From NCBI GenBank assembly GCA_010093605.1, contig MU004193.1, positions 1,123,520 through 1,187,519 on the forward strand: a DNA stretch of 64,000 nucleotides, in the 5' to 3' direction. Below, piece by piece: positions 26,439 through 55,904 of this stretch. The DNA is from Lophium mytilinum. Taxonomy: Eukaryota. A model generated the notes under the pieces. The model had not been told where the DNA came from, did not search any database, and saw nothing but the letters and a program-made list of their open reading frames with translations. A program made the translations under genes and the position numbers. Positions within the stretch are counted from its first letter, which is position 1, and the number at the start of each line of letters is the position of its first letter.

Positions 26439-26564
26439 AGCGGTCGCCCAGTCGTAAATCAAGAGCAAGTGGAGCGGCCATATGAAGCGAAAAGAATCAT
26501 CCCAAGATCTGATGGAAAGGTCTAATGTAGCGTTTGAAATATTTCACATACTACGATGATAGTC

Positions 26565-27276: not shown

Positions 27277-28398
27277 ATGCCGCTCCCCATCAACCCTCCA
27301 GGTACCCCATGGACCCGAATGCTTCCAGAGCCAGTCCCAATCCGTAACGCGCCACGTCGGCAACAAGCTGGCCGCCTGACTGGGCTGTTCAGGGACCGGG
27401 AGCAGATCTTTCAAGGACTTTTGAGCCACACTCGCCGCGAATTTACCACAAACCAGACTCCCCGAGAATTAGGTGGCGACGAGGGCTTCCGTCCGGATAA
27501 AGAGAATAAGGGGTTTCGCCCACCAGCTTGGCTCGTCCCTGAAGACTCGGAGCGCCCTTGGGAGATGGGGCCATTGGTCCTGACCTTGCTGCGTGAAGAT
27601 GGGGTGACTCCGGCCACGGTTGATATTGATGCAGGAGAGTCAACCACACACGGCCCCGAAGTCGAATCCTCGGCTGAGTGTGATCTCGAGTACTCGAACT
27701 CGATTAGCCATGCAGAAGTTGAGGTAACAGAGCTGGAGGAGGCATACATCGAGCTCGGCGTCATGTACCACCAGACCACCGATGCAGCTCGAAACACCTC
27801 GCTTAGTCGAGAGCAGCGCCGCACCTTGTCGACCGCCTTCAGCGGCCAGCCGCGGTCGGCGCACCCCCTCTTTGAACCCCTCCGCCGTGCCCAGAGCCTC
27901 TACAACGAGGCGCACCATGCCCATCATGAGGCTGACATGAGCGAAGAACACCGTGCTCGACTCGGTGACCTCCTGACGCGAGGTTCCCAGGAGGTGCAGG
28001 TGTTCAGGGAAGAAATCATAGCTCTCCACCAGCTCGTGACGTCCATTCGGGATGCCGACGCTGCCCTAGCATTTGGAGGGCGCGACCCGCTACTCCACCG
28101 CCGTGCCATGATGGCTCGACACCGTCCGGATGAGTATCTCGCGGATCCGCGGATCCGTGCGTGGGTTATGGCGCTCCCGGAGACGGCGAGGCAGCTGGAA
28201 CTGGGTGTTCCTCTTGCGCACGTGATCATCAGGGTGTTCGAACCTGGCGATGGACCGGCGGTTGATGATGTTCATGTTTGGCGTGGTCAGGATTCCCCTC
28301 CGATCCCTCGGAGCCATGAGTCTACTTCCGAGGATTCAGAATCTGATACTCATGAGAGCATGGAGTCTGATTCAGATGACAGCATGGACTCCTTGTAG
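27277..28398 (+). CDS. Hypothetical protein, tandem family X copy 3
   Basis: GVMYHQTTDAARNTSLSRE...AFSGQPR...WVMALPETARQLELGVP and an acidic tail. First ATG at 27277. Confidence 0.8.
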   Translation: MPLPINPPGTPWTRMLPEPVPIRNAPRRQQAGRLTGLFRDREQIFQGLLSHTRREFTTNQTPRELGGDEGFRPDKENKGFRPPAWLVPEDSERPWEMGPLVLTLLREDGVTPATVDIDAGESTTHGPEVESSAECDLEYSNSISHAEVEVTELEEAYIELGVMYHQTTDAARNTSLSREQRRTLSTAFSGQPRSAHPLFEPLRRAQSLYNEAHHAHHEADMSEEHRARLGDLLTRGSQEVQVFREEIIALHQLVTSIRDADAALAFGGRDPLLHRRAMMARHRPDEYLADPRIRAWVMALPETARQLELGVPLAHVIIRVFEPGDGPAVDDVHVWRGQDSPPIPRSHESTSEDSESDTHESMESDSDDSMDSL

Positions 28399-32082: not shown

Positions 32083-32730
32083 CTAACGAGCACGGGAGTC
32101 AGAAGTGGCCAGAATACCATTGCGATTACTTACGTCTTCCAGAGGCATGGTGGACGTCGACATCTGAGGCTGCTGCAAGTCCATTCACATCCCATGTTCG
32201 AGCCGCACAGCCAGACGTGGAGCGAACGGAACGGGCGCAAAAAAGGGGCAAAGAGCCAGCGGTTCAGCCAGCAAGAGCGCGGAATGAGAGAGATACGGCA
32301 TGAGCCAGAAAGCGACACGCTGTGGGCAGACCGCAACGGCAGACGGCGAGCCTTACATCGTGGTTGTGAGCGGTACGCCCCATTTAACGCGCCAGAGAGC
32401 TTTTGCGCGCTGTCCGGGATATTTTAGCGGCGGGAGCTTGATACAACGGATTGGGGCCAAAACAGGGGGCCAGCATGGCGGGCTCGGCTACGGCGACAAA
32501 TGACCAAGCGTCGATAACTGTAACGAAACCACATGCACGCTGTGCTGTCAGGACGCTTACCCTACTTATTACCGTGAGTGCCCCTCACTCAGACCAGCTG
32601 CTATGAGGCTCTTTGCTCGCCAGCGGTATTTGATTGCCCTCGTTCCAGCCCGAAAGGTTGCCGGCTGCTCCCCTAGGACATCCCCGCTGCTGGATGATCC
32701 ACCCCTCGTTTGGCCAACCATCATGTAAAT

Positions 32731-34354
32731 ATGTCTTCGAGCGTCTACTCGGCGTGGGTTTGGTCTCCAGAGCACCAGCGCCACTACTGTTACCGCTATG
32801 TGAACGGCCAAATCGAGTACCAGTGGTCAGGCCTCGCAACTGCCCAAGCGCAAGCAGCCGCGACAACATCGATACCGCAGACACCCCAGGGGACGAGGTG
32901 AGTGATAGTTTATATTATAGCCCTCGAATCTTTGATTGAAACCTTGTTACGGGCTGGAGCACTAGCTCTGCTAGTTGAATGGTTTTTGGAAGTTGTCGGG
33001 GGAGTTCGTTGCCTTGATCTCTTTGGTAGCCTCGTCCTCTCAGCAATGAAACTCCATACCCTTCAAGTCTAGCCCCAAGCACTCCCAACTTCCTCTGCTG
33101 ATCTCCACTATGCAGTGCTGTACCTCGCACAGTACCGACAATACCCTCGGCAGCCGCATCCTCGCCGGGAGCCACATCCTCAAGGACAAATACTTCCTCG
33201 GGAAAAAGGCCACAACCCAAGAAAGAGACTCCTATAGTGCAGGAAGAGAAAGATGACGACGAAGAAGATGAAAATGAGAGCGACGAAGAGGACGACGACG
33301 ATGATGATGACGAGGGTAGTGGAGCGAGGGAGGGAAGGCCGGCGCTTCAAGTATCATCTCAGGCGTACAGGCCAGTCGCAACCACAACGACCCAGCCCGG
33401 CCGGTCTCATAGTTACCAGTATGGAGCGCCCCAGCCTAACAGCTATCAATACGGAGGTGCCCAGTCTACCGCTGCTACATATGCGTCATCTGCAAACACC
33501 CCCTACGTCGCCCCCGCTTCGGCTCCCACGTCACCTCAGTACACCTTCCAACGTCCTCACACGGGTGCTTCTCAGACGGCTGTGCCACAAAAGCGGCAAA
33601 ACTCTTCCAATGGGGGAGGTCCAAACCATCGGCACATTAAAAGTACCGCGGAGGGTACCGAGTCAAAGGAAGAGTCGCTTGATCCTCGTACGTGGTTCCT
33701 GCACTCAACAGGTACCCTGACTGACCGTGTTAGGCTACAAAAGAGTATCCCTTCGGCACACATCGCAGTTTTTTTGTAGAGGAAGAGTCTTCAAGATGCT
33801 TTGGACCGAACCCGCTGGTGTCACTCCGGGGAAAACCCGCGGTTCTACCCATTTTAGTCTAATTAGGTTCAATGAGACGGCCTACTCTGAGATTCGTCGA
33901 TTTATTGTAATAAGTAACAAGGGAAAATACAGTCAGTGCATGTAAGTTTGAATGTGGTTTCTCACCCATCGTCAATCCCTTGTCAGAAACTATCTCACTT
34001 CCTCTCATTCGACCCAGTACGTATGAGACTAAGGCTAACAGTCATAGACCTATCCAAACATACCGTGGCCAGGGCGCTCGTAAGCAGGGGATTATAGTCA
34101 ATGATCACGCCTTGATCTATACTGGCGCCGAGAACGACGAACAACCGCAACTTCTTCCCGGCGAACGGATCACAAAACAACCTCTGCGCGTAGAGCCAAC
34201 GGGCCAGGAAACTCTCGAACCTGCCTCTCGGGTAAATTTTGGGAAGGTATACACCGTGGAACACAACGTCAAAGTGTTAGACGTTGGCGTTGTTGCTCCA
34301 CAGCACATATACCTCTTGATAAATTACTTCACCGACGCTGTGACTTCGGTGTAG
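32731..34354 (+). CDS. DUF6590-type protein copy 1 (N-terminal W/Y motif, acidic linker, MazF/PemK-like C-terminal domain)
   Basis: MSSSVYSAWVWSPEHQRHYCYRYVNGQIEYQW...LDP/YKRV...FFCRGRVFKMLWTEPAG...SEIRRFIVISNKGKYSQC/IPIQTYRGQG...HALIY...SRVNFGKVYTVEHNVKVLDVGVVAP. The structure of the middle exons is approximate. Confidence 0.85.
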
Positions 34355-36097: not shown

Positions 36098-38490
36098 TCA
36101 GCCTAGCCATCTTTGCGAACCGTATTCCGAATTCCTTCTCTTCCCTCCTTCATTTCGTCTTGCGTGCTCTCTCTCTCCTCCTATCACTCTCGTGTCTTGT
36201 TTTTGTCTCCTGTGCGGTCGCTCTGGTTCCTTGCCGGAGTGCTGTTCATCTTTCACATTGTTTCCAAGTGCCAAAGTCGAGGAGGCTTCGCTTGCTTCCG
36301 GGTCATTGCCATCATCCATCGGAGTATCTTCGGGTTCTATCGATCCTCCGGACTGTGCCGGGTAGTTCAATTGCCATTGCTCCGCGGGGCGTGTATTTCC
36401 TCTAGGCCGTGGTTGCTGATTGCTCTGTGAACTTGTCCCCATCGCCGCCTCGAATTCAGATCCTCTCCTTTTAGTTTGGTGAGTCTGAAACGCTTGCTCT
36501 TGTGCACCAGATGATGCCAGAGACTGAGGATACACCGGACGGGATGGATAAGCGGACGATGATGCCGGTGTCGATCCCCCAAGGGCATACGGTGGTTTTA
36601 TGGTGGACCCCAACACTGAGGGTTGCTGATACGGTGAAAGCTGGCCTTCAGCAGGTTGATATGCTCTCTCTGTGGATGATCCAGCATTGAGCTCTTTTGG
36701 AGCGCTACTTATGTTCGACCCAAAAGTGCCGCGCGAGGCTCCTACCACAGATCCCCAGTTCAAGGCTGGTTGGTGTGGCGAAGGCTGACTCTCCGTAGCC
36801 TGATGGTCTGCGAATATTGATGAACGAGTGTTGACATCGTTATCGGTAGCAATCTTTGTGTTACTTTTCTGATTCGTACTGTAATCAGACGAAGTCCTTG
36901 CTGGCCTATCCCGCCGCGGGGCGGTAGAGTCGGATTTACAGGCGTTCATGAACTGGTAAACGAGGGCTCGCTCCGAGTTTTTATGCACCTTCCCAAAATG
37001 CCGTACCTTCACATTGTGCTGGACGGTGTACACTTGGTCAAAGTTTATTCGAGACATCGGATCGAGTTTTTCCCAATGAGGGTCCGGCACAACACGAATA
37101 GCATCACCTAGTGGCAGTCGGTTTCTCTGGGTCATCTCTTCAGGCCTTAGTGGCGGGACAGTATCACCAGTATAGATGATGGCATGTCGACTTCTTTGCT
37201 TATCACCAGTGACACCCCGGCCTTCATATGTCTGGATGGGGAGGCACCAGCAGCAGTTACTGCGCATCTTGACGACGACAAACCAGCGGATTTTGACGAA
37301 GAATTTCTCCCCAAATCTCTTCGACTCAGCAAGGTTTTGTGCCGAGACTTCGTGGGCGGAGATCGTCATAGAAGCGGCTCGCTCTGCTACCGGCTCAGGC
37401 CAAAGAACTCGGAATACTTGGCCTACGAGGAAGTAATGATCCCCCTTTGGCTGGACACAGAAACCTAATTGTGTTAGAAAGTTGACTGAAACAGAATGGC
37501 TTAGTCCGACAATATCTTACGAGGATCTAATCGCTCGACTCGCCCAACGGTACCGGCAATCACCTCCGTGTCTACGTCGTCCACGTCTGGTCCCTCTTCT
37601 CTTTGACTAGGCATGGGTGGCGCATTCTGGATTTCTGTGGTACGGGAAGAAGTATCTATTGTCCTTCCCAAGGTCGACGGAGCTTGGCTCGAGCTCTGCA
37701 TTGGAGGTGCGTGGTACGCATTTTGGGCCGGAGAGGCGTCGTGCGAAATGTGGTTCGCGTTTGCGTAGTATGAAATCTGACTTGGATTCGAGCTCTGGAC
37801 TCGCATAGTTTGCGGTTGGCCATTCGTCAAGGGTGGGCTCATGGCCCCGGTGTTGCTAGAAAGATAAGGGGCATGCTGGGCCCAAGGAGAGTACTGAACA
37901 GAGTTCTGACCCATCTGGTACGGGTTCCAGTGGTTGGCCGCAACTGGACGATATGGCTGACCACCAGAGGCTGCATGGTATTCCGGCCCAATTCGTAAGA
38001 GAGAGTGTTGAGCTATGGTTGAGTTTAACGTGTGTGTTTGGCCAAACCCTCTCTCATTCGGTTGTGGTTGAACAGCATATATGCCACCGCTTGTGGTCCC
38101 ATTATCGATTGGAGCTTGTTCGAGGGTCGGAGTCAGCTGCGAAGTAGTCTGTGAGTTGCTTGACTCCACAACTGAAGGGGATGAATGCAGCTGATTGGCA
38201 GACGAGTTTTCTGCACTGTCTTCAAAATGTCTTTGGGGGTTACTGATACTCTATAGATTAGCCTCCAGTGCTGATTCCGCATCGAAGCATCGTCTTGGCG
38301 GGGCATATTGAACTCACTGATTGTTTGGACCGGTAGTGGCACCTGTTGCAGAAATTTGAGTGGTATTGAGTTCTGTACTCGCTCTAAAAATCCAGCTACT
38401 GCTTCCCGTATCGTAGTACCGATAATCATGGTATCTCTCGTCCCATATCCATTCCGGCGGCGGTGGTGGTTCTCCCTGAGGCGGTGCCAT
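36098..38490 (-). CDS. DUF6590-type protein copy 2 (with a long disordered C-terminal extension)
   Basis: MAPPQGEPPPPPEWIWDERYHDYRYYD...ERLDP/RFCVQPKGDHYFLVGQVFRVLWPEP...KIRWFVVVKMRSNCCWCLPIQTYEGRG...HAIIY...SRINFDQVYTVQHNVKVRHFGKV. Introns at about 38317-38243 and 37520-37465. Confidence 0.85.
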
Positions 38491-39210
38491 AATGGCGCAT
38501 TGGCCGGCCCTGGTCACTTTTGTACGTATGCAGTCGCCATCAGTTTTATGTAAGTTCCTCTGTCAAGGATGGTAATGATGGGGACGGGTCGATGAGGGGA
38601 TTGGTCCAGCAAACAGAGCCTCATGATGTCGACTTGTACGTATGATTCGTCCGTTCCTTTGGCCAGCGAAGTCGACAGCCCCGGCAAACCCTGGTAAAGA
38701 CTGGTTTCCAAGTCTAGCCTGCCTCGCTTACTGATAATGCAAGCAGCGGAGGACGCGGGCGAGAACCACATTGATTGCCCTGTGATCCCGGTGGTACGTT
38801 TGTGGCGCCTCCTTTGCAGAAACAGGGCGGGCAACCCTTCTTTTAAGCATGCAGTGTCCTTCACACCAAAACTCGACTTGGTGTGCCTTCGACTGTTAGC
38901 CGTCGCCTACTTATGGACCTGGTAAAGCAGGAGCCGGTCGGTACTGAAGTCGTCTCGGCCAGCGGATATGACATTTTTACTGAACTTTCGTAAGTTTTCT
39001 TCGGCTCAGTAATTTTTGCTCCAAGTTCTAACTATATGAAGACTGCAATCATCAGTTCACCACTCCCCTTTACTACTCTCATCCGAGACACTCGATGCAA
39101 GAGGTCAGCTGGACCTCGGCTCTAGACCCTCGTTCCAAAATAGAAGGCTTGAGCTATGCGAAGGATCGCCGAACAATGCCTCTGCCGCATTTGACCAAGC
39201 CTCCTCAGCC

Positions 39211-40551
39211 TTGCTGCAAACGCAAGCGCCGTCCCCTCAAGAACATTATCAACAACACTCAAATGGGAATACATTGTACCAGATTTCCACTGGATCGCCG
39301 GAAACATCATCACAACTGCCAAAGAGGAGCACCTCTAGGCAAACCATGCCAAACAGCCTTCCACCGAGCAAAAGGTGGATCAGAGCACAACCACGCGTGG
39401 CTCGTTGGAGGGACAAAGTCTTGACTGCACGTGTTCGGAATAAAGAGCAAAGGAGGATATGTTCGCAGCAAAGGCAGCACTGCCATGGTCTCCAATGGCG
39501 GCTCACGAATAATCTCCAGACAGCACTGGAAGCCCTTGTACAAACGAAGGACCCGGAAAGCCTCAAAAAAGGTTTCCAAGGTCTTCAGCGATTGTGCGCA
39601 GAAGTGGGCGTGTTAATGAATGGATTGGAGGCTGAAAACGTGCAAGTAGATGCACAGGAAGACCATCTTTCTGATCTGGAATACCGTTTCGGAAAAAAAG
39701 AAGATGACCTCTTCCGCCACTTGGACATTGCATTACTCGGCGGCGACACGCAATATGAGAGCACAGATTCATTCTCCGACAGTAGCTCTAGTATATCGAG
39801 CTACGATTCCCCTGAAACCGAGATCCACCCTCTTCTCAAAGAACTTTATTCAAGGATGGGAGACCGAAACATCTATAAGGACCGCCGGATCGATTTCGAG
39901 ATGCGGCTTCAGCACGACGTCGAAGATCGCGAGACCCTTCGTGGAGAAGGGAAAGAAGTCAGCACCGATGAGGAGTTCTACCGCACGCGACTACCGGAGC
40001 AGTTACGAATACAATATGATCTGTCCCAAGCACGCGAAGATGTTCGACGGCTTAGGCAGTTATGCTTCAATGAGGGTATCGAGGTTGAGCACATCGTTGA
40101 GGACGACGACGATGGATCAGCTTTTGATGCTCATTCTGAAGTGTTCTCAGCGCCCGTGGATCTGGAACATTCTACAAAACCCTCGACTACGGACTGGTGC
40201 CCTCCGCAAGCATCTCGATCTTTTAGCAGTATATCACCCGGGGTAATCAATAGCTTCGTAAATACCCGCGAGCGTGTCAGGAAGTGGTTAGCCGATGCCC
40301 CTATGGTAGAACCAGCGCTCGAAGCACCCGCAATTCAAGCAATATCCAAGGACCAGAGTTGGGTCAAGCTAGTGCGAGCACCATGGCCATCAAAGGAGGC
40401 TCTACAAGGCGGGATCTCTGGCTACGATGCACCTGACTGGATCCAGCCCGCGCAAGCCCAGCTCTCCAAATCGGCACCTTACATTCGAACCCCGTCGACT
40501 GAAGCCTACGACAACCCTCCACGAGGAGGACGCACATGCAGTTCCTCGTGA
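39211..40551 (+). CDS. Coiled-coil partner protein CC2, divergent from DUF6590 copy 2
   Basis: 446-aa ORF with LSDLEYRFGKKEDDLF (compare EWRFIEAEDDFY in CC4) and NTRERVRKWL (compare STRERINMWI in CC1). The true start is uncertain: first in-frame ATG at 39346, possible upstream exon near 39095. Confidence 0.75.
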   Translation: MLQTQAPSPQEHYQQHSNGNTLYQISTGSPETSSQLPKRSTSRQTMPNSLPPSKRWIRAQPRVARWRDKVLTARVRNKEQRRICSQQRQHCHGLQWRLTNNLQTALEALVQTKDPESLKKGFQGLQRLCAEVGVLMNGLEAENVQVDAQEDHLSDLEYRFGKKEDDLFRHLDIALLGGDTQYESTDSFSDSSSSISSYDSPETEIHPLLKELYSRMGDRNIYKDRRIDFEMRLQHDVEDRETLRGEGKEVSTDEEFYRTRLPEQLRIQYDLSQAREDVRRLRQLCFNEGIEVEHIVEDDDDGSAFDAHSEVFSAPVDLEHSTKPSTTDWCPPQASRSFSSISPGVINSFVNTRERVRKWLADAPMVEPALEAPAIQAISKDQSWVKLVRAPWPSKEALQGGISGYDAPDWIQPAQAQLSKSAPYIRTPSTEAYDNPPRGGRTCSSS

Positions 40552-42999: not shown

Positions 43000-45066
43000 T
43001 CACCGAGAGGGCCGATCCGGCTTCCTGGCGTGTGGAGCGAGGTTTCCGATGCCAATTTCACTGTGTGCCCGTCGGCGATGCGGGTTCAGAGGCACCAATC
43101 TATATGGTTGCAGCACCTCTTCAAGTGGTATAAACTCAAGAGGTGACGGTGATCGAGACAGACGGTAGTCAACTGTTTCAGGTGGACTAGGTACATCGTG
43201 GCTTGGCTCATTGACTGTGGGTATGCCTGCTACTGTATTCTCAGGATCCAGCGGAGGAGTTCGAGGCTGTCTATCCCGGTGCCAAGAGCCATCGTACGTC
43301 GCAAGATACTCTGCCACCGCGCGTTCTTGTTTCGGACCTCCTGGCTCAGACTGTGGCCTGGTTCTGCCTGGCCGTTCATTGGGGAATAGGGTTCGGTGAC
43401 TCTGAATTGCTTCTTCGATCTCAGCAAGAGCCGTTTCGTGGCTTCGAACTACGACATCTGGGTAAGTTTCTTGCGTGGGTGTGATTCCTGGAGATGATGC
43501 CGGGGATTCTTGGTCTACTTCGTCGGATATTACTTTTGTTTTACAATGTGGCCAGTGAAGACAAGATGCTTCCATTACTGGAGATGGTTGGCAAGAATCT
43601 TTCAGCGGAAGGGGTGGTGGTAGACTGATCGCTGAATCTGCAAGCATCTGTGGGTCGTTGATGACAGGATGTTCCACAGCGTGGCCTCCTGACTGATCTT
43701 GCGGCTCTGTCAGGGAGATAGCAGGTTCATTCAGGGGAAGTACCGCCGTCAAATCTTCCGAAACTTCATCATATAAATCCGCGGTGCTGGCTAGAAAGGC
43801 AACATCGGGTCTTCCCTCGGTTACAGTTTTCCTAGTAACAGATCCCACGGCGTGCGCAGTTTGATGAGATGCCGACGGACTTTCTAAATGTTCATGAAGC
43901 AGGGGACTGCTTGTTATGTCATCATTCCAGTGTTTGACGATCTGCAGCCATGAATCTTCATCGAGATTTTCAGTCCTGAGACTCTTGAGGAGGGTCTTGA
44001 ACCGCGTCCATTCGAGAGGGGATTCATGGAGGCTCTCCAGCATCCAAATGCCAATACGCTGTTTGACGCTTGAAAAGTCACTGACTAGATTCGATACCGC
44101 ACTGTCGGTCCACGCTCGACTGGAACTTGGCCTGGTCGGCAATGCTCTCTGACTGAAGATGTACAAAGGGTCCGACGCTCGTCGTTCGACATTTGGATTA
44201 TGTCCCTCGGTGTACATTTGCTGCTTCCAGCGCTGCAGTTCATTTTCTGCCGCTATCAACCGATCAAGGATTATGCTAGCTCGCTCATAGAACTCTCTCA
44301 AATATCGCTCGGTCTCTGGTGGCGTTGAGAATTCGGCCAACATTCGCAATCGGCGCTCTTCCATGTGTCCAACCTCTTCTTCCCGAAATTTGTTGAATTG
44401 AGCTGTGAGCTTTCCAACTTCTGCAAGAGCAGACAAAAATCCTTGGTTGATTATATCGTTGTTGGTCTCCGGCATCACCACCTCGGTAGTCGGCGGTTGT
44501 GGTGGTGAAGATGATGCGGACGGAGGTTGGGCTGGTCGATCGTCATTCGGAGCAAGTCGTTCACGTAAGGGCTTGAGAACCTGTTCCTCAAATAAATCCA
44601 GAGCGTCCATATCATAGAACTCATTTTCCTTTTCGAGCATTTCCCATTCAGAGATATTGAAGATCCTATCATCTTGCATACTGTCATCCTCGGTTTTGCC
44701 TATGTCATCCCGTAACTCTTGGACAAGCTGGTATTGCTCCTGAAGTTCAGGAGGAAATATCTCATTCCTCGTTATGTAAAGGCGTCGAAGGCTTTTCATG
44801 AACTCCGCTTCAGCATCTCCAGCCTTGAGCCGCTTTTTCCGGATAGCACCATCGGTTAAGCGAAGATTGACCCGTCCTTGGACTACCCCTTCTCTCATTT
44901 GTAGCAGAATCCTTTGTTGGTCTTGGAAAAGGCGTAAGAATTTACGGACCAGTTCGAGCAAATACTCCTCTTCGTTTGGTAGAGGCTTTGGACTCGCTTC
45001 TAGCCTTGTGTCTTGCTGAGAAGAACGCTGAGGAGGACGCAAGTCCGGATTCGGGTCTCTCGACAT
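43000..45066 (-). CDS. Coiled-coil partner protein CC3, divergent from DUF6590 copy 3
   Basis: AEAEFMKSLR...VQELRDDIGKTEDD...SEWEMLEKENEFY...FNKFREEEV...RRASDP...KQRIGIWMLESLHESPLEWTRFK. First ATG at 45066. Confidence 0.85.
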   Translation of the reverse strand: MSRDPNPDLRPPQRSSQQDTRLEASPKPLPNEEEYLLELVRKFLRLFQDQQRILLQMREGVVQGRVNLRLTDGAIRKKRLKAGDAEAEFMKSLRRLYITRNEIFPPELQEQYQLVQELRDDIGKTEDDSMQDDRIFNISEWEMLEKENEFYDMDALDLFEEQVLKPLRERLAPNDDRPAQPPSASSSPPQPPTTEVVMPETNNDIINQGFLSALAEVGKLTAQFNKFREEEVGHMEERRLRMLAEFSTPPETERYLREFYERASIILDRLIAAENELQRWKQQMYTEGHNPNVERRASDPLYIFSQRALPTRPSSSRAWTDSAVSNLVSDFSSVKQRIGIWMLESLHESPLEWTRFKTLLKSLRTENLDEDSWLQIVKHWNDDITSSPLLHEHLESPSASHQTAHAVGSVTRKTVTEGRPDVAFLASTADLYDEVSEDLTAVLPLNEPAISLTEPQDQSGGHAVEHPVINDPQMLADSAISLPPPLPLKDSCQPSPVMEASCLHWPHCKTKVISDEVDQESPASSPGITPTQETYPDVVVRSHETALAEIEEAIQSHRTLFPNERPGRTRPQSEPGGPKQERAVAEYLATYDGSWHRDRQPRTPPLDPENTVAGIPTVNEPSHDVPSPPETVDYRLSRSPSPLEFIPLEEVLQPYRLVPLNPHRRRAHSEIGIGNLAPHARKPDRPSR

Positions 45067-45900
45067 AGTAGGCTTTGTTGTGGCGTGAGGAGTAGTGGGC
45101 ACTTCGCTCTCCTGTGGACATTTCCGGATAATATACGGCGGCCGAAAGCGCGGTCCGACCGGTGTCACTTGAAAGTTTCAGTGCTGAGACAGGAGACGGA
45201 GAAGAACAGGCAGGTTAAAACGAACGTTGATATGGTCCACGGTTATGCTATGTCCCGAGCTCTGCAATGTGTAAGACTGAAGATCGATGTGTTGAGTTTA
45301 GCGGAGGGTGTTGCAATGGACAGCCCTTACATGGTCGCAATTTTGACGCGCCTGAGCTTGGCACGCGCAAGGTGATAACCGCGCTATTTATTACCTTGCA
45401 AAATGAAACAAATGAAAGCATTCCACTTGGTAGCGGCGGAGGGATTAAGGCAACCGTGCGTAAAGGGCTCGACCAAGCTAATTGCGGTGCACGAGCATGC
45501 ACCCAGCCGGGCGAGCAACGGGGGGCCCTCAATCGGTGAAGGCGATCGAACGAGGCGCTGGTGCGTCCCCCATAATCCGAAGGGTGGCACGCCTAAGTGT
45601 GAATCCCTGCGCCATACTAAAGCGGCGTTCGACCCGTGCGGTACGCACCAACCGCCTGGGATTGGGCCTGGGGCATTATGCATGGCGCATAACTCATAAC
45701 CCCTCCTTGTTACTTGCATGCAGCATTCAGACAGGGTGAAAGTGGGGAAGATGGACAATCGCTGCAGCGTAGAATAGCTCGTGATAGAAATGCGGCTCTG
45801 CGAGCGCTACGCTGGCAGCCACCGAGGTGTGGACAGGAACGTGGCCCGTATAAGAATGCCTCCCCCAACCGTGTGAAACCTGTCTAGATAGCAATCAAGC

Positions 45901-47159
45901 ATGGCTTCCAATAGCAACCCATGGGTCTGGAGCGAGGAATATAGGCGATACTACTGTATCTCTTATGATGAAGAGTGTAATTGTACCGACCTGAAGCAAC
46001 GTGTGGGCTCACTGACAGTCCAAGCAAACCCCGTGTACATTTGGCAAGATGTCACACCTAGTGTAGCACCCACCCCTACCTCACTCGGTATAGCAAGCAA
46101 TACTGCAACCGCTACGCAGCGTGCGTTTTCTGACATGTAGCGACAATTTGAATGTACTAATCAGCTCAGGCCCCCCTCCGCAGACTTGGGCCTATGGAAG
46201 CCATCCTACAAGCCACGCCGCAGTCAACACAACGACAAATGCTGTATACAGCACACCCACGGAGGGTGCAAATGATCCACGGCGACGCGATTCAGTGATG
46301 ACTAGTAAGCTACTCACTTGTAATGATGTTATAATTGAACCGTCTACGTTTAGATCATTGAAGTGAACTGACATGGATCACTCAGAAAAAGCACCGGACT
46401 TGGGCAACCATATCAAGGGGACGAATGGAGACTTCGAGGAGCTAGATTCAAGTATGACCCTGGATGACTGAATATCGCATAGCACTAACAACTGCAGGCT
46501 ATTCTGTAAGGAAGGATGGCAAGAGATTTTTCAAAAGAGGAACAGTAAGACCTTTCCCATAGTTGATTGGACCTCGGCTTATTAGTTTTTACAGCTCTTC
46601 TCGGTCCTGTTTAGTGAAGGCATGGGAGAAACGCAAAAAATGCAGGACAACGAGAATGTCACTACGGTCAAATACGGTGGGAAGGTGTTTACACAGATAC
46701 GCCGATTTGGTAAGGCGTGTTCCTGGACAGAGCTCCCCGTATAAATTTAACAGTTCACCAGTTGTCGTGGCAGAACGTGAGGGGTTCTGCTATGCGTGGT
46801 ACGTTTAGAGATTCTCATGTACCCATTCAACCGTTTTTTAACAAATCGAATACAGTCCAGTCTTCACGTACACCGGTCGTGGGACCCTGAAACCGGGCTG
46901 TCGGCCGTGGGAGCATGCCGTCATATACTACAGCACGTTGCAATCTCCCATAACTCTCGATGGCGAGAACCAGATGAAGAATTCTCCCATCGGGGTGAAA
47001 CCAGAGCCTACCGAAACGAGGCCATTGAGTACCGCCTCCCGTGTACAATTCGGGAAAGTGTACCCCATTGATCACAATGTCAAGGTGAAACTTCTCGGGA
47101 AAGTCATAACTGAGCACATGGGAAGGTTGATCGCCTACTATAAAAATGAGCTCGATTGA
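45901..47159 (+). CDS. DUF6590-type protein copy 3 (compact, many introns)
   Basis: MASNSNPWVWSEEYRRYYCISYD...ELDS/YSVRKDGKRFFKRGT/LFSVLFSEG...TQIRRF/VVVAEREGFCYAC/PVFTYTGRGTLKPGCRPWEHAVIYY...SRVQFGKVYPIDHNVKVKLLGKV...LIAYYKNELD*. Confidence 0.85.
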
Positions 47160-47924
47160 TTCGTCGTCGACGCGCGCATCCTGGACAACCGATCATACGT
47201 GGGACGCCAGCTCAACACTGGAGAGATTAGCTTCAACACCTCTCCCTATTCCTTTTGTTTACAATTACGTGAGCTTCATACCTTGAAGCTCGGTGGCACC
47301 ACCAAGAAGGACCTCTATTTCTCGTTCGATAAGAAGCGCACTTGATATTCAACCCAAATTGTCGATGATGATACTAGACAAGACCCCCATTTCGTTCTTT
47401 GAAGTTATATGATGTAGTTTTCCCTTGTTTATGACAGACTGGAACCTCTCGTAGTCTACTTCACTCTGAGTAAGCGTGTTCGGACTTGTATGCTGTGCGT
47501 TTTATTTCGACATCCACTGTCTTTACTCGTGTGAACATCGTAAAGAGATAATGAAGACATCTGACTTCTTCGAACTATGGTCGTCTAACATCATCTAGAT
47601 AGAGACGAGCGTCACAGGTACTCTACTAGATAGACGTAAGATACGAGTCAGAGCGAAGGACCGGCTGAGTAATCTGATGTAAGGAGCCTTCGTGGCAGAG
47701 ACTTATAGACTAGCAGAATATATTCAAAGGAGTCGTGGGCTCCGCAAATGATGATGAGCTGCTGGCATACTGGTGCAAAACTTTTCAGATTTTCTTTCAG
47801 TGTTTAGTACTACTACCAAAATAGAATAGCGTCTTGGCAGACCGAAATAATACCGAAAATATAGGAGAAATGACCGTATCCCGACTAGCATGCTCCCTCC
47901 GAGGCCTTCTTCTGGCGCCATTTT

Positions 47925-49679
47925 CTACGTCAGCCACTCTACCTCCCTTTCTAATGGCTCGATGACGTTGGCGTAGATTCCATTTCGTGTCTCAGCATCG
48001 TCCAGCCTCACACTCTGACCCCCCTGCACCCAAGTTAGGTCCAAACAAGCTTCAACTGAGGAACGGTATGGCGACGCATCCATTTTCTTGACAATACGAT
48101 CCGCGACTATCAAATTAAGGTTGTCCTCGGTAGCGGCCGTCAGATTCGAGCGCTCCTGCGTGCTCCGCCAACACTCGATTGGCTTTTCGTTATGTATCTC
48201 GATAAGAAGAATGCCCAGAGTGAGAATATTGGAGTTCGGATGGAACACTCCGGAATTTGGTTGTCCGACTTGCCTTGCGGGGCTCTCAAATCTAGTCGAA
48301 AGGTATGGTCTCGTATAATCTGGCTCGTTTTGGAGGTTGACGAAAAACGAGAGATTGCTCTTGTTCCATCCGCGGCTAAGCCATGGACTATCATGAAAAA
48401 GAAGAAGCGAGTAGGAACATATCAACGCAAGTCTGCGCTTTTCTAATGGTCCCATCTTTGCATTTTCAACCAGTAGTTCCCCTAGGGATATTGGTTTTTG
48501 TGGCTCGAGTAAGTTGTGGATCCGTCGAGGTTTAGGGGCCAATCTCCAAAGAGACTGCTGTCCGTTGATGTCTTCCATGAGAATGCGGAGCCTGAAGTCT
48601 CTCAAGCCCATTTTCAATGCGTCACAAACTCTTTGGAGCCTAGTTTCGTCGTCGGCTCGCGGTATACTGTTCCCAAATTAGTCAGGTTAGAACTCCATCA
48701 GCCTCAAAATGTACGCTTACCTGGCCGAGCAGACTGACACAGTCCCTTCTTGCCAACAGTGCGCGCTGTTCTGTGAAGAAGTTGTGGTGATGAAGAAGTC
48801 AAGGTCTACGACGTCGGCGTTCAAGTTTGCCGAAGCTTCCTGGACGTAAATGCAGAATCTGGCTTCATGTCCTCCGTTGCAGGTACACTTCCACGAGCGA
48901 GCAAACGCATCATACAACTTTCTTGTTAGTAGCCGGGCTGGCGCAGAAGGGCTTGTGAGTGCGAGGAAAAACCCGCTTTTTCCCTGAGTGTGTTCACTAT
49001 GTCGGCGCCCCATAAGAGGCAGAACATGTGTCTGAGATCCTACTTTCTCAATGAGATCTCTCAATCTCTGATTCCTGAGTTTCAATCTCTGCAAGCAATC
49101 ATTGCGATGATTCTTTTTTCTGAAAAAGTGGAATCTTTCCATGAAATTGCTTTTCGTTCTCTTTGTTTCTCTTTCCAAGGCGAAGCCTTTCAACTTTTCA
49201 TACATTTCGGATTCTTCCTACAGCCACTTAGTACGTAAGACTCAGAAGAGTTGTTCCTGACTAACCAAGTCTTTGTTGGCAACGTATGTCATTTGGTTCT
49301 TGAGGAGCTGAGCCAGGAGTTGCACGATTCTTTTTGACGTTGTGCTAAATTTGTTGAACGCAGCCTCCGAACCAAAGTAACGGCGAAGACGCTTCTCCAC
49401 TTCTGAGTTTTGAATCCAGTCATCCAGCTTCAACGCAGAGGCAGGACGATATTGTCCCGGGGAATCCGAAATAGCTCTAGATATCTCTGCAACGTGCTCT
49501 CCTAGCTCACTTATTTCCCAGTAAAATTCGTCGTAGAAGTCGCTAAGGCTCGCATTACGGCGAGATTTTAAAGAAACATTAAGAACTGTGTCCACTCCAT
49601 CCGAGTACGCTTTCCCAGCCTCGATAAAAAGTGGCAGCAGCGCAAGGACAAGACCGGCACACTCGACTCCCGTAACCAT
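47925..49679 (-). CDS. HeLo-like N-terminal domain plus C-terminal pseudokinase-like (DUF7580-type) protein, 3 exons
   Basis: MVTGVECAGLVLALLPLFIEA is a HeLo-like hydrophobic N-terminal helix. The C-terminus reads RRLALICSYSLLLFHDSPWLSRGWNKSNLSFF...PYLS...NILTLGILLIEI...YRSSVEACL. It joins ORFs 49242-49679, 48717-49205 and 47925-48617. Confidence 0.75.
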
Positions 49680-50280
49680 GGCGATATCTCAGAGGTAGCA
49701 ATTGGAGTGCAATGATTCGAAAGGCTTGTCGAACTTGATTTTGTGTCTCACTAAAGATTCAGCTGCTTGTGTCTTGGGTCGTTGAAATAAAAAAGCTCGC
49801 GGTTCTTGAGGGGTCAAGAGTTCTAGTGGGGTCACCGCCAATCATCAAGACCTTCCGGTGAAGGATGTTCCGGTGAGTGCTGCGACTGACCGAGGATAGG
49901 AATCTCTAAGAGCGTCCGGTGAAAAGCAATAAGCTTGACGATTCCAGAGAGCGCCCTGGGAAAAATCCATCATTACTAGATCTATATCGAAACATAAATA
50001 GTACGTCACCCGCTGCTCTGCTGTACCCCATCACCTTGCTATAAGTCGCAAGATTGAGTGCAGTTTACCCCGCACTAGAAAAAGCAAATGAGTGCACGTC
50101 TCAGCATTTTCTATCACCGACCCAGCATTGCAGATTCTAATGCTTGTCGAGGCTTAGTTTACATTTCTTGCAACGCTTTGGTAAGATCTTTTCAATTTAG
50201 CCTCTAAGTACTACTATCGAACTTTTAGAGAGACATTCCATGCCCTGTTGAGGTTCAAGCTCCAAGAATCTCTTCTCAGC

Positions 50281-53204
50281 ATGGACACAGTAAAGTTCGA
50301 AAACGATGCAAGAATCAGCACTTCTACGGAGCAACTACACTACGACAATTTCATATCTATACAAACTGCTGCGAATCATTGCGCTAGTATCTTCACTAGC
50401 TCAAGAGCAATATCTATTCGACAGGAGTGCCCAAAAGGGATACTAGTCGACTTCGAAACCCAATGCAGTCGATTCAAGATTTGGGCATGCGGTCTCGATA
50501 TCTCTTTCAGTCAAGTTAAGGCGGAGCAGCTGAGTGAAGAGCGGCTTAAGACTGAGAGTAAGTGCGAAACCGATGAAGTCGTTGCCCATCTGCTTCGAAG
50601 GCTCGCCGGAAAGCTCCTTGCATTTTTGGCATCACCTTTGGATACTCAAGCCCGACCTGAAGAGCAGTCAAGCCAGGCCGGAAATAACGCAGAATCAACG
50701 AGTCCATGTTCTTCGGTGTCCTCTCTGGTGCTTGAATCGGATGCAGAATCTTCCGACTCAGATGATTCACCCCCAGACTCCGCAACACTCCGGACAAACC
50801 TTGCTCGCCGGCATCCTCTACTGGTAGATGCTGATAATATCATCACGCGTCTCTATCGCTTCAATGCTATTACCAGGATATACACAGCACACGGTGAGCA
50901 CCAAAGGTCTCCTCAGCATGTTGGGGCTGATCAACAGTACCCTGACCCACCGGGTTTCCAGTTGCTTGTCGAAAACGACGTTCTGAGGAGTAGTCCCCGC
51001 CTGCAACATTTGCCAGCTTTGCAGGAGCGTATTGTTCGCGCAGCTCTTCACCGGGACAGAAGAATTCGTGGTTGGAAACCCCATGAACAGGAGCCTCTTG
51101 AAGCTGATGCCTCGGAAACTGAGATACCTCCAGCAGGACCAGAAGATTGTCTTGGGATTCCACATATGCCGCAACCTATCAGGCCAAGTTCATCGGAAGC
51201 TCAATGTCCTATTTGCTCCAAAACCTTTAATCACGGGCTTGAAGAAAATCGGAATACGGGAAAATGGTGGAGGTAATGTGTTAATCGCCGCTTGAGTTTC
51301 AGTCCTTCTACTAATCTAACTGGGTAATTATAGGTCCCATGTTATGGAAGATCTAGAACCATACGTCTGCCTATTTGAGGAGTGCCCTATGGAGTATCAA
51401 GCTTTTCGGACTATCGCTGATTGGATAAATCACATGGCGTGGCAGCATACCACGTTCTACTCCTGCCAGTTTGGCGGCCACGAGAATGTATTCTTCCTCA
51501 GCCGGAAAGCATTCGAGTGTCATCTAACGCAAGATCATCTTGATAACATCCCTAAAGGAAAAATTGACCATATCATCTCAAAAGGCCTCCGGCCGGCCCC
51601 GGATCTGATAACAGTGCTCGTGGCCAAAGCAGATCTGACGACACATGCCCTTCTCGATCACGTGTCCTTGTGTCCCTTTTGCTATATCGGATTGAGTATA
51701 TTCGGCTTTCCCTTGAATGTAGAAGCAAATGGTACTGCAATCTCACTAATTCCATCTGCGCTACATTTGAAAGTACAAGACCACGTTGCTGCTCACCTAG
51801 AATCCATTGCGCTGCTTTCGTTAAAAAAAACGAGGACCGTACCCTCCTACCCTTGATCATTCGGTGTCTAAAGCAGCCAATTCGCGAACTCTGGAAGATT
51901 CATGGCCCGCCGCATCAAATGCGCCCATGAATGCATCCACAGATGCGCAGGCCACATCCCAGCCAACAACGCTCTTCCGTCAAAGATCCGCTGAACCTGC
52001 GCATCCACCGAATGCTAGTCATTTGGAATCTGGTGTCATTACATCATCAGATGTAGAACCCGCTGCACATGCACAAAGGCAAATGGCTTCGCAGCCAGCG
52101 TCATCCTCTTATCATCCGGCCTCGAACTCTTCTGCACAAAATACCGGCCTGTCCATGTCGCTCACCAATGCTTGGACATCCGAGACTTCTAACGCGAATG
52201 TGTGGACTTGGAGCGAGCCTTACCAGAACTATTACCGCGTCTCTTGGGACTCGAAAGGTAGTATCACTATGTGAAGTTAAGGATGCGTTGTTCACTAATT
52301 ACGATGCAGGCGCTCCAATATACCACTGGGCCGAAATAAAACCTACCATTTCAAGTCCGGTGAACCCAGCGAGTTTGGTATCTTTGCCTGCAAAGGGTAG
52401 GTCGACTTCCCTTTATGTTGAGTACTCGTTCTTTCAGATATTCTATCAATGCCGTTACGTTTCCAGAAACTGACAAGCCATAGATGAAAGCAAGGCTGCA
52501 AATGTTAGCAGTGGAACGCTCAGTAACGCAGAATTACTTGACTCGAGTGGGTTTATTACCGTAGACTCAAACATGTTGTTGCTAATTGCTACAAGGCTAC
52601 AGACTCCAAGCTTCTAGGTTCTTTAGGAAAGGAAGGGTAATTTACCCTGTAAGCAGCCTTAGTTTGGTAATACTATTGACGCAACTCTGTAGATGTTCTC
52701 AGTTCTTTCCACTGTCGGTGATACCGCACCTAAAACAGACAAGGAGAGCGGGTATGGTAGTGTAGTTCGGCACCAAACGACTACGGCGGCGCAAATTCTC
52801 CGATTAGTCTCCGTCGATAACAAAAACGAGGTGTGTTATGCCTGGTAAGTTTCACACGATACTCATCACGGTGAGACGCTGATAATGATAGTCGTATCTC
52901 TACATACGGAAAACGAGGTACCCTCGGAGAAGGGTGCCAACCTAGCCAGCATGCCATTATCTACTACGTTGGGCGTCAGGATCCTATCCTTCTGGAAGGA
53001 GAAATGGGAATAAAGAAAAACCCAATTGGAGTCACACCTATGGAAGGCGACTCCTCGCTATCAAAGATGCACGTTGCTTCGCGCCTTAACTTCGGAGATG
53101 TGTATCAGATAGAGCACAACGTGAAAGTAAAAGATCTCGGGAAGGTCATCGACGAAGACATGTCGTACCTGATTGCCTACTACGAGCAGGGAAGAAAGGG
53201 ATAA
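50281..53204 (+). CDS. C2H2 zinc-finger protein fused to W/Y motif and DUF6590 copy 4; frame broken at an A8 run (51823-51830)
   Basis: RFKIWACGL...IITRLYRF...CPICSKTF...WR/SHVMEDLEPYVCLFEEC...WINHM...CPFC...HVAAHLESIALLSL. Removing one A continues the frame to WTWSEPYQNYYRVSWD...LLDS/YRLQASRFFRKGR/MFSVL...CYAC/RISTYGKRGT...HAIIYY...SRLNFGDVYQIEHNVKVKDLGKV. Could instead be a pseudogene or two genes. Confidence 0.7.
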
Positions 53205-53987
53205 TGTGACTCATGCTCTACACGGTCATGGAAATTGAGGATTAAACACTAAGCGCAGTTCAATGTTGACCTAAATGTCTTGATTTAAAGTGATGGTGAG
53301 TTATTGAAAGCTTCCGGCTGTATCGATTTGAAACTCGAGGCTGCTAAATAGTTCATATACCGATTTCGTTATTTAATTGCGTCACTGAGACAATAGTCCT
53401 CTTGTCACAAGCGGATTCAAACGGCAGAACTTTATACCATGACTCTAGCAAGACACTGCGTGGCCTGATTAACGACCGGAGGGAGTGAAGTGCCCGGGAA
53501 CGCAGCACGCTACAAGCTATAACGTAACGATAGTATGCTTCCAAAATATGGTTAAACAATTGATTGGAATCCACTCAATCCCCTTTAATAGAAGTCCTGT
53601 AACTTGAAGGATCCCTATGCGATGTTCCTATGCTTGCATTGCGATCAGACAACAGCAGGAATGGCTTCACACGGGCCGGGCGCTTCGCTGGCGAATAGGG
53701 CTATGGCTTAGAACTAGTATTTTCACCAGCCGCGACTTCATTGGTGTGCACGCGCGAGTGGCACAAGCCACATGCAATGCTGGGCAGATTTACGTTCTAG
53801 CCTGCAACGAAACCCACGTAGACGTCTGCGTCCAGAGTGCCCACTGTGCACACACTCTGCTCTGGTGATGTCAAGTCCGAGACCTATTGGCTTTTGATGC
53901 ATACGGCGTTTTTCGAAGAACCCTGTTTTCTGCTGTCCATGCCGGCGTCCCCGAGCTGCTCTCACTCATTCAAAGCCTGGGGCAGTC

Positions 53988-55904
53988 ATGTCGACAGATC
54001 GAGGTCCAATTGCAGACCTACCAGAGGAACTTTGCGGCGATACTTCTGATGTCCGTCCAAACCGGCCTTACCTTCCAAACTTCTCTAGCGTGTGTCGTCA
54101 TAAGGACTGTCATCTTTCTCAACACAAGGACCGTCATTTCCATCGCAAGTACCGTCAACATCTAGAGAACGTGCAGAGGAGGCATGAACAGCTCGCGCAG
54201 TCAAGAGAACGAATAGTCATCGAGCGAGTGGAAACCCGATCTATATTGCAATCGATTCGTCCGCACCGAGAGAGAGCTGGAAACCTCGAGGCTTCATTTG
54301 TGACGAGGCTGAGACAATTCTGTGCGCGGCAAGCCAGTGTTCTTCCTCCGGATATTGACGCACTGTACCAAGAGGTTCAAGAAGCACGAGACACGATTGG
54401 TAAACTCGAAGATGACTTTATCGAAGCCCAGAAGTCGTATAATGCCTCTGAATGGCGGTTCATCGAAGCAGAGGATGATTTCTATCAGTATGATATTCTA
54501 GAAGATCTCCCAGAGACTAGCGACGAGGGCAGTATTAGCGACAGCGCACGTGGAGAGCCTACAACTTCACTCGTCATAACCCAACCAGTCGCTAAAGCTA
54601 TGATGGAAAGACTTTCCCGCGATCTCGTAAGCAATACGATAGAAAAGCGCCAGCTCAACGATCAGTTCAATGACTTCCGGGAGGAAGAAGTTGTACCAAT
54701 GGATGAACAAGAACTACGGTTACTTGCCGACTTTTCAACTCCGCGGAGGATAGAGGAGGAAAAGGACTTATTTCAACAAGCAGCAAACGTGGTTATCGAG
54801 AAACTCGTTGCTGTCGATGTCAGAGAAAGAAATCTAAGGCAAGAAATGCTCAGTATCGCCCACTCCTCCATGGCCCTTAGTCGCCGAGCTTCGGATCCTC
54901 CGAGATCGACTATGATGCCTTCACCAACTTCAAACATCGAGGCAATCTCACGCGAGATGAATGAAAGCAACTTGGCTGTGTATGGCCACGACCGCATAAG
55001 TAATAGAAAGAGAGTGGGCCAATGGATACTTGATACTATGGAGACGTCATCTCTTGAGAAAGCTCGATTCAAGCACTTTCTCCGCAGTGCAAACAATGAG
55101 GAGTTTGATGAGTCCATCTTTGAGCAGATCTTGATTCAGCGTTGGATGGATGGGAGCTCTAGTAGTTCAGCAAGTCGCACTGGCCAAGACGGCCCGATGT
55201 GGCACAGAAGCGTTGCGAGAAGTGAGTCTATGGAGGCAAAGAGAGAAGAATATGAGCCTTCGGAGACTCTGATGTCCAGACATGCAAAGAGCACATGGAC
55301 ACCGCCCATCTCCGTCAAATTTGCCTCACCACCCCATCACCAACTAGAGCTCAGAAACACAACACCGGAAAATATGGAAAGCTCTGATCATACGAGCAAT
55401 CTCTCTACAAATGACCGACACATAAGTCAAGACAAGACTACCATCGATCGCCCTAACCCCACGCTAGACTTTCATCAACATGCCTACGAATTACGTATCC
55501 AGCCTGAGAGATCTAGTGATCGGCCTCGATCAGATCTAGGGGATATCGGTGACGCTGGGAACGTCACTTTCGATCTGATTCTACCCAACTCATCCGCGAA
55601 CGTTGAGACCTCGTCTACCACCCAATACCGGTACAATGAGCCTTTGCGAGCTCCTCCGCCAATGATCACCGAGAACATCAGAGGCGCCCACCAGCTATTC
55701 ACATATACCATCAACAGACCATCTCCAAGTCCACCGCTTACAATGGCGTCTAGCGCTTCAGTCGTAGTTAATATCTCACGATCTGCTTCACCAATGAGCG
55801 ATGGTATTGAGCCACATGAATTACGGCGATGCCCCAGAGGAGATCTACCGCTTGCAAGGTCTGCATCCCACCGAAGATCTCGGAGTGAAAGCAACGCTTG
55901 CTAG
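53988..55904 (+). CDS. Coiled-coil partner protein CC4, in tandem downstream of DUF6590 copy 4
   Basis: LEASFVTRLR...VQEARDTIGKLEDD...SEWRFIEAEDDFY...FNDFREEEV...RRASDP...RKRVGQWILDTMETSSLEKARFK. Clearly paralogous to CC3. Confidence 0.85.
   Translation: MSTDRGPIADLPEELCGDTSDVRPNRPYLPNFSSVCRHKDCHLSQHKDRHFHRKYRQHLENVQRRHEQLAQSRERIVIERVETRSILQSIRPHRERAGNLEASFVTRLRQFCARQASVLPPDIDALYQEVQEARDTIGKLEDDFIEAQKSYNASEWRFIEAEDDFYQYDILEDLPETSDEGSISDSARGEPTTSLVITQPVAKAMMERLSRDLVSNTIEKRQLNDQFNDFREEEVVPMDEQELRLLADFSTPRRIEEEKDLFQQAANVVIEKLVAVDVRERNLRQEMLSIAHSSMALSRRASDPPRSTMMPSPTSNIEAISREMNESNLAVYGHDRISNRKRVGQWILDTMETSSLEKARFKHFLRSANNEEFDESIFEQILIQRWMDGSSSSSASRTGQDGPMWHRSVARSESMEAKREEYEPSETLMSRHAKSTWTPPISVKFASPPHHQLELRNTTPENMESSDHTSNLSTNDRHISQDKTTIDRPNPTLDFHQHAYELRIQPERSSDRPRSDLGDIGDAGNVTFDLILPNSSANVETSSTTQYRYNEPLRAPPPMITENIRGAHQLFTYTINRPSPSPPLTMASSASVVVNISRSASPMSDGIEPHELRRCPRGDLPLARSASHRRSRSESNAC

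Follow-up and report, generated by a model that had tools for sequence, protein, structure and literature searches.

A head-to-head DUF7580/zinc-cluster gene pair with exchangeable tails in Lophium mytilinum and other ascomycetes

The 64,000-nucleotide stretch of Lophium mytilinum DNA analysed here (the window; G000:C13:1123520-1187519 of a 43.4 Mb fungal genome) carries two divergent genes: gene A, encoding a helical N-terminus followed by a DUF7580 pseudokinase, and gene B, encoding a predicted helical bundle and a zinc cluster, beyond which lies an out-of-frame DUF6590 domain, here called D4. In this family, A and B are linked, descend together and keep their architectures, and the tail attached to B is exchanged. 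We lean, narrowly, towards placing the locus in a widespread ascomycete family of head-to-head two-gene defence or cell-death modules, built on a scaffold other than that of NLRs (receptors with a nucleotide-binding domain and leucine-rich repeats), in which B would serve as the input and A as the executor. The copy described here probably combines an intact executor gene with a sensor that has been retired.

Linkage of the pair in this genome and in other fungi

The start codons of gene A (49679, reverse strand) and gene B (50281, forward strand) lie where the initial annotation had put them. The 601 nt between them (49680..50280) are presumed to be a shared promoter region from which both genes would be expressed. 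The same annotation had asked whether DUF7580 and zinc-finger genes are generally divergent neighbours, and the linkage proved to be systematic. The genome contains 18 matches to DUF7580 (PF24476), 17 of them above the Pfam cut-off of 27 bits. Twelve of the 18 (the window, L021-L029, L031 and L034) face a gene with the full zinc core over a short interval, and two (L030 and L032) have opposite them a gene that contains no more of B than its helical N-terminal part. The remaining four (L033, L035, L036 and L037), three of which are of the HeLo-kinase type and one a short remnant, are unpaired with a zinc gene. Viewed from the other side, 12 of the 14 zinc-core loci found are paired; the other two are transcription-factor-like and have no bundle. 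Facing by chance would be expected at ~0.0006 per DUF7580 gene (12 genes x 4 kb x one half / 43.4 Mb), with the reservation that pairs duplicate as units and the copies are non-independent. Two of the HeLo-kinase-type genes face other partners, a kinase-WD40 gene (L037:4904-9440) and a Rho-like GTPase open reading frame (ORF; L035:440-4658), possibly following the same logic.

The tails of the zinc-core genes differ widely. By Pfam, those of the genome paralogs are NB-ARC with DUF7779 and TPR; Rsc7/Swp82; kinase, bromodomain and SH3; Macro (x2) with PAH; ankyrin with DUF6590; Rua1_C with ankyrin; DUF6590; PHD (below the cut-off); and kinase with HET. No tail domain was found by Pfam in L022 and L023. 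In eight paralogs the first tail domain lies in one uninterrupted frame together with part of the zinc cluster; later tail domains were assigned from the order of exons on the same strand. Among homologs of the L026 core (best 120 of 128 matches), the tails include Macro, kinase, ankyrin, TPR, WD40, SH3, NB-ARC, NACHT, BAG, bromodomain, Rua1_C and DUF6590, and further tail accessions that we take to be HMG, RGS, FHA, NmrA, HSF and RRM. GYF and CBM21 pieces also occur as tails. Variable domains are confined to one partner, B; the additions seen on the A side are enzymes, namely the S8 peptidase and PNP_UDP domains fused to DUF7580 in Atlas neighbours of A. A Neurospora pangenome study (PMC13412767) places PF26082, the zinc-cluster family carried by relatives of L026, alongside HET in the group of families that vary most in copy number.

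Three other species, Aspergillus undulatus (KAL4931108/109), A. pseudoustus (KAL2846942/943) and Dendryphion nanum (KAH7136154/155), have relatives of this A and this B under consecutive accessions. For tails, the B genes of these three species have an alpha/beta hydrolase, one short tail and a 1913-residue protein without a Pfam match; none has DUF6590. The partnership is of long standing and the tail has been exchanged. The initial annotation had also considered that the two genes might prove unlinked elsewhere; they were found side by side in these species and in metagenomes. There, the best 80 of 256 loci were taken, of which the 43 with at least 2600 nt upstream were counted and the 37 shorter ones were dropped. 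A divergent DUF7580-type gene was found in 43 of the 43 counted loci, in 38 by motif and in 5 by reading of ORFs; in the 38, the conserved-helix motif lies about 1.7-2.4 kb upstream on the opposite strand. Among the dropped loci, the motif is on the opposite strand in L061 and L068, and upstream on the same strand in L088, L089, L103 and L110. At L105, a zinc gene stands opposite a DUF7580 ORF after which comes an S8 peptidase exon.

Architecture of gene A

Gene A comprises three exons on the reverse strand (49679-49266, 49217-48721 and 48666-47925), which join into an intact open frame of 550 residues. Exon 1 (49266..49679) encodes a hydrophobic N-terminal helix and a helical domain that is MLKL/HeLo-like by position; exon 2 (48721..49217) encodes linker helices and a degenerate kinase N-lobe with a CxCxxxH motif; and exon 3 (47925..48666) encodes the C-lobe of the DUF7580 pseudokinase. 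The two introns (49218-49265 and 48667-48720) are predicted, and database protein P0001 has the same two splice junctions, minus 14 internal residues. Three other data sets cover the region: X1 and X2 are DNA assemblies of one sample, which may be the source, and X3 is near-identical DNA that we judged to represent RNA on account of the GT..AG joints it contains. None of the three counts as an independent allele. The introns of gene A are not among the X3 joints listed, a blank that was not used as evidence.

DUF7580 was the sole domain in a Pfam scan of gene A and P0001, matching exon 3 at E 1.4e-27 (97.7 bits) and the whole of P0001 at E 5.7e-35 (121.9 bits); NB-ARC and NACHT were absent from that scan. 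An AlphaFold model based on a 15-sequence alignment had an overall predicted local distance difference test (pLDDT) score of 50.9, with values mostly of 70-90 across residues ~350-536. Kinases or pseudokinases occupied all top rows listed in both fold searches: Foldseek had a best E of 1.5e-3, and VIA gave TNNI3K (Z 9.8), AtMLKL3 (8.4) and MLKL (7.9), where rows within Z 1 of each other count as tied. Foldseek returned no match at E<=0.001 for this model or for that of a gene B relative. In profile alignments (with HeLo-kinase paralogs, and of the family with IRAK4), SRG stands at the HRD position and STR at the DFG position, so that the catalytic Asp is gone and gene A is a pseudokinase. Profile alignment also related DUF7580 to the kinase part of the HeLo-kinase paralogs with a probability of 92%, and searches of PDB sequences with profiles gave weak rows only (centrin; Dps-like; IRAK4/BRAF at E>=0.03). 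The first helix of A is hydrophobic and conserved throughout the family. The architecture of gene A, a helical N-terminus followed by a pseudokinase, is MLKL-like, short of an assignment to HeLo.

The C2H2-like fingers in B and the several chromatin or transcription domains among the tails raise the question of whether the pair serves signalling or transcription outside defence, with B as a zinc-finger regulator and A as its pseudokinase scaffold. We consider this highly unlikely. There is no catalytic kinase; at least 12 paralogous pairs carry unrelated tails; and the family is associated with HET, NB-ARC/NACHT, S8 and PNP domains and varies in copy number.

Gene B and its DUF6590 tail

Six introns of B and D4 are spliced in X3 (51273-51333, 52258-52309, 52397-52483, 52547-52595, 52637-52692 and 52845-52891), one contig of spliced RNA not being proof of a single transcript. 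When spliced at these RNA-supported introns, gene B ends at a stop codon at 51854-51856, just beyond the end of the conserved zinc cluster, and encodes 504 residues. Exon 1 (50281..51272, forward strand) encodes, by the family model, a predicted four-helix bundle, a helical hairpin and the first Cys pair. Exon 2 (51334..51856), which follows the RNA-seen intron 51273-51333, encodes an acuF-like C2H2-type zinc cluster with its Cys and His ligands present, and matches the L026 core at E 5.9e-12; the family carried by the L026 relatives is named zf-C2H2_AcuF.

The frames of core and tail part at a run of eight A (51823..51830), at the exact end of the conserved core and 8 codons before the stop; protein P0150 also ends at this stop. 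The linker and DUF6590 frame, 362 codons long, is shifted relative to B at this run. An assembly error was rejected as the cause, the letters around the run being identical in X1, X2 and X3. A rescuing intron was rejected too: the predicted introns include no good frame-restoring candidate and the RNA contig has none, since the spliced X3 contig spans 51332-52255 with no gap and no difference and no intron lies between 51334 and 52257. Because the frameshift is seen in both DNA assemblies and in the spliced contig, the fusion of B with DUF6590 was probably ancestral and has been broken in this genome. Alternatively, the A8 run at the junction could be a slippage switch between a tail-less and a tailed sensor. 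The zinc-finger protein carrying a DUF6590 that had been described for this locus therefore has both of its parts, with D4 out of frame with B.

The core of B is itself unevenly preserved. Exon 2 is 42% identical to P0154 and keeps the zinc ligands. Exon 1 is 29% identical to the same protein, has an altered GN-LG/SAD-R motif and, compared to the closest relatives, has two deletions of ~30 and ~20 columns, one of which removes a conserved Ser/Ala motif. We consider it fairly likely that this copy of B is non-functional as a tailed sensor.

The juxtaposition of an intact A and an eroded B bears on a reading in which the pair is a selfish toxin-antidote or allorecognition element. A would then poison constitutively, B would supply an allele-specific antidote, addiction, drive or vegetative incompatibility would keep the pair in place, and the tails would mostly be passengers picked up by read-through into genes next door. 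Such a reading, which we regard as distinctly unlikely, agrees with the tight linkage and co-descent of A and B, with the two paralogs that retain only the helical part of B, and with the derivation of D4 from the adjoining DUF6590 array. An addiction module would not tolerate an intact A beside an eroded B unless A were silent. A spliced antisense RNA over gene A (48686..48759, forward strand), with a GT..AG intron opposite the gene and represented by an X3 joint in one contig of one run, could silence A and may bear on how an intact A is tolerated. Furthermore, the same tails turn up in different classes: DUF6590 occurs both in Fusarium and here, and Rua1_C with ankyrin both here and in a lichen fungus. 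This suggests selection on the tails.

The locus sits inside an array of DUF6590 genes, four of which are matched by PF20233 within the window. The first part of the out-of-frame tail (51825..52546, forward strand; introns 52258-52309 and 52397-52483 RNA-seen) consists of a Ser/Ala-rich linker and a W-x-W-S-x-x-Y/H-x-x-Y-Y motif common with D3. D3 (45901..47160, forward strand) is a neighbouring stand-alone DUF6590 gene of the same subfamily, has its Arg and Pro intact, and likely represents the source lineage of the captured tail. The conserved C-half of D4 (52892..53204), preceded by intron 52845-52891, matches PF20233 at E 4.6e-26 (92 bits) and keeps the Thr of the PxxT position. The N-half (52596..52844; introns 52547-52595 and 52637-52692 RNA-seen) is degenerate, and its exon 52693-52844 has no PF20233 match at E<=10. 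The motif changes reported for D4 were exact: ILRL stands at 52795-52806, the Pro is missing after CYAC at 52834 (CYAC followed by RISTY, against CYAC followed by PVFTY in D3), and the Glu of the TEP/PEP/SEG motif is absent. D3 has CGC, TTT and CCA where D4 has CTC, TTA and CGT at the corresponding codons, so that Arg has become Leu (CGC to CTC). Arg is present in 14 of 15 aligned DUF6590 N-halves, D4 alone having Leu. The absence of Glu is not diagnostic, because L027 also lacks it while keeping the Arg.

A model of the DUF6590 relative P0136 matched models of PemK/MazF with template modelling (TM) scores of 0.51-0.52 by query and 0.64-0.71 by target, a comparison of prediction with prediction; D4 itself was not folded and, compared to these toxins, lacks the Arg, keeps the Thr and is out of frame. 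Profile searches gave no sequence-level match between DUF6590 and PemK/MazF. According to PMC10893535, MazF depends on two residues, an Arg and a Thr, that are separated by 23 positions (Arg25/Thr48); the corresponding spacing in DUF6590 is 19 residues. From motif position, and without superposition, it is a reasonable inference that the conserved Arg of DUF6590 is the MazF catalytic Arg, which would make the Arg lost from D4 a catalytic one.

The C-half of D4 is 48-52% identical to three D3-type paralogs, and D3 is 58-63% identical to the other two. D4 was rejected as a recent duplicate of D3, to which it is 52% identical and from which it differs by the absence of one intron. That its frame is open and correctly spliced at such divergence suggests long constraint followed by a recent break. 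The idea that D4 is simply decaying is thus borne out in part: the frameshift is real, yet the frame of D4 remains open and continues to be spliced.

The initial annotation had gone on to propose that an inactive DUF6590 may act as a decoy or sensor coupling the module to a cell-death executor, and had asked whether zinc-finger-fused DUF6590s preferentially lose the Arg. Neither idea was supported. In a small and opportunistic survey (n=6), five of the six zinc-core-fused DUF6590s keep the Arg (L027, whose fusion was inferred from exon order, L029, P0062, P0064 and P0145) and only D4 has lost it; the nearest relatives have other tails, D4 is out of frame, and exon 1 of B is eroded. What stood, and strongly at the level of gene order and architecture well beyond this locus, was the broader notion of a linked pair of a sensor-like and an executor-like gene with an integrated domain.

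The retention of Arg in most fused DUF6590s fits another division of labour, in which the effector would be carried by B, either in its bundle or in a tail of the MazF-like RNase, HET, hydrolase, NLR or kinase kind. The pseudokinase A, as regulator or antidote, would keep B inactive and detect the trigger, and D4 would be a toxin domain first inactivated and later shed. The tails include HET, alpha/beta hydrolase and NB-ARC/TPR, and the state of this copy, with A intact and B decaying, is in keeping with an antidote that has outlived its toxin. The bundle of B points the same way: in a model of the B relative P0019 (36 sequences, pLDDT 73.6), the N-terminal four-helix bundle matched best the Sw-5b SD (Z 11.0) and the Rx coiled-coil domain (Rx-CC; Z 10.9, root-mean-square deviation 2.9 over 105 residues), that is, NLR coiled coils, then unrelated bundles and, lower down, the four-helix bundles of AtMLKL3 (Z 8.7) and MLKL (8.5) and HET-S (6.9). 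We nevertheless regard these roles as unlikely. Matches with Z <13 may be generic for bundles; many tails are pieces of housekeeping proteins without known toxicity (Rsc7, bromodomain, PAH, PHD, SH3, GYF, CBM21 and BAG); and the conserved hydrophobic first helix and the S8 and PNP fusions belong to A, not B.

Several observations concern DUF6590 genes more widely. The DUF6590 on the C7 zinc gene (L027:4780-5560) is D3-type (63% in the C-half, with shared intron positions) and represents a second capture from the same subfamily. A W-x-W-S-x-E/P-x-x-x-Y-Y-R...P-I/V-Y-x-W motif travels with DUF6590 genes (window 52200-52330 and 45920-46050; L029:5030-5100; L032:7230-7320), and in L032 the W-x-W-S motif is part of a fusion in which a helical bundle of the B type follows it. 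Spliced antisense RNAs with CT..AC joints in X3 lie over the 3' ends of D3 and D4 (46761-47631, 52495-52560 and 53083-53169). Stand-alone DUF6590 genes are head-to-head with long, probably coiled-coil genes at window positions 30070-34354, 36098-40551 and 43000-47160, and the same arrangement occurs twice on C16 (L040:2727-10000) with more distant DUF6590s; given the MazF-like fold, these look like a second, toxin-antitoxin-like family of pairs. The D3 partner (43000-45177) has a paralog downstream of D4 on the same strand (53898-55904; 33% over 353 residues), and a third, weak match to these paralogs lies at 30070-32082. Beside the C2 DUF6590 gene, L039:6100-6900 is AT-rich and stop-riddled, resembling a repeat mutated by repeat-induced point mutation (RIP). 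Elsewhere in the window, three tandem orphan ORFs (23875-28398; 282, 400 and 436 residues) share a 'YH-TT...AF-G...W...LPET-RQL' pattern and have no Pfam match, and a gene at 4654-6963 has a weak SesA-like N-terminus (E 0.004) with no NTPase domain in the Pfam scan.

The favoured model and its bearing on fungal immunity

Our preference for B as the input and A as the executor rests on the hydrophobic first helix and the enzyme fusions, both found in A, and on the variable, often housekeeping-derived tail of B. The core of B would be the dedicated partner of the A pseudokinase, binding and controlling it. The tail would be the input module, whether as a bait that copies host proteins, as a sensor made of repeats or as a toxin domain that was captured. 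Disturbance of the tail, the presumed trigger, would switch B, and the N-terminal helical domain of A would be released to damage membranes, or an enzyme fused to A would be activated. At this locus the tail would be a captured D3-type DUF6590 with a MazF-like fold, whose N-half degenerated while the frame stayed open; a later frameshift would have cut it off, and the core of B is eroding. A complex prediction for an intact metagenome pair, that of L065 (A residues 1-594 and B residues 4-405, with no alignments and with controls not folded) scored 0.31 against a mark of 0.34.

Several observations weigh against this model. The N-terminus of gene A is helical in the AlphaFold model, with pLDDT mostly <50, and is thus poorly modelled. 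The name HeLo-like/DUF7580 given to gene A earlier is confirmed for its second half: its N-terminus gave no Pfam match to HeLo, HELL, Goodbye or SesA, a HeLo match was found in 1 of 34 A-family rows (weak, E 0.022), and no alignment to the N-termini of HeLo-kinase proteins was obtained with a 3-sequence profile. (Some Atlas clusters neighbouring A have HeLo on 27-75% of their members, which we treat as a lead.) The B bundle also gave weak HeLo matches, in 3 of 37 rows and in P0157, so that the roles of A and B could be reversed. The tails are often of effector type (HET, hydrolase, DUF6590 with the Arg intact) instead of decoys, and the conservation of at least one clade, that with the Macro tail, in many Dothideomycetes is less typical of a receptor with fast turnover. 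The metagenome loci are redundant (roughly 28 distinct) and were picked with the motifs of one subfamily, and L089 (334-3505) and L103 (496-5942) have a tandem head-to-tail version of the pair, not the head-to-head one.

Paired receptors are familiar from plants, as in RRS1/RPS4, RGA4/RGA5 and Pik. The present pair resembles the head-to-head plant sensor/helper NLR pairs with integrated domains, as treated in PMC12258605, in its divergent orientation, its short interval and its combination of one conserved partner with one that carries a host-derived variable domain. Unlike those pairs, the A and B cores lack NB-ARC, NACHT and leucine-rich repeats, Pfam scans of the B family rows included, and NB-ARC occurs only as one B tail. 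The same source reports that head-to-head NLR pairs are uncommon in Sordariales, where they make up 13 of the 225 two-NLR clusters. Closer to A are MLKL, the plant MLKLs and, from a preprint, wheat R3NLR/R3AK (bioRxiv 10.64898/2026.08.07.743466), which share a helical N-terminus and a kinase-fold C-terminus and include an MLKL-type protein paired with a second gene. In contrast to that pair, B is a scaffold of bundle and zinc cluster where wheat has an NLR, DUF7580 has degenerated much further, and the N-terminus of A is at most a candidate homolog of the MLKL four-helix bundle. The fungal HeLo/HELL executors (HET-S, HELLP) and HeLo-kinase proteins (PMC10197012, PMC9815663) likewise have clustered receptor and executor genes, and DUF7580 is related to the kinase part of the latter. 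They differ in that the activator here is not an NLR and A has no HeLo Pfam match; no amyloid motif was seen, and none was searched for. These two papers treat HeLo/MLKL-like effectors without this zinc-gene partner in the parts covered. A literature search, outside whose coverage most subscription journals lie, gave no account of a DUF7580/zinc pair and left DUF7580, DUF6590 and acuF-like unnamed; parts of the B core could appear in the non-canonical-domain table of PMC12258605 or among the unannotated N-termini in S1 Text of PMC9815663. The paired-gene family is apparently undescribed.

More tentatively, and somewhat short of an even chance, the family may constitute a second class of paired receptors for intracellular immunity in ascomycetes, one that is independent of NLRs. 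Its bundle/zinc scaffold, with domains captured from genes for chromatin, kinase, trafficking and toxin functions, would control a dedicated MLKL-like pseudokinase executor encoded head-to-head with it. If so, the catalogue of tails would map the fungal proteins attacked by bacterial, viral or fungal antagonists. Fungal executors are known, but the receptors that guard host proteins largely are not, and the family would supply, within a single genome, at least 12 pairs of this sort built on another scaffold. It places three orphan Pfam families (DUF7580, zf-C2H2_AcuF and DUF6590) in a testable context and predicts that fungi have an MLKL-like pathway whose genetic partner is defined. This locus is a poor test object; paralog pairs that are intact or have single exons are directly testable.

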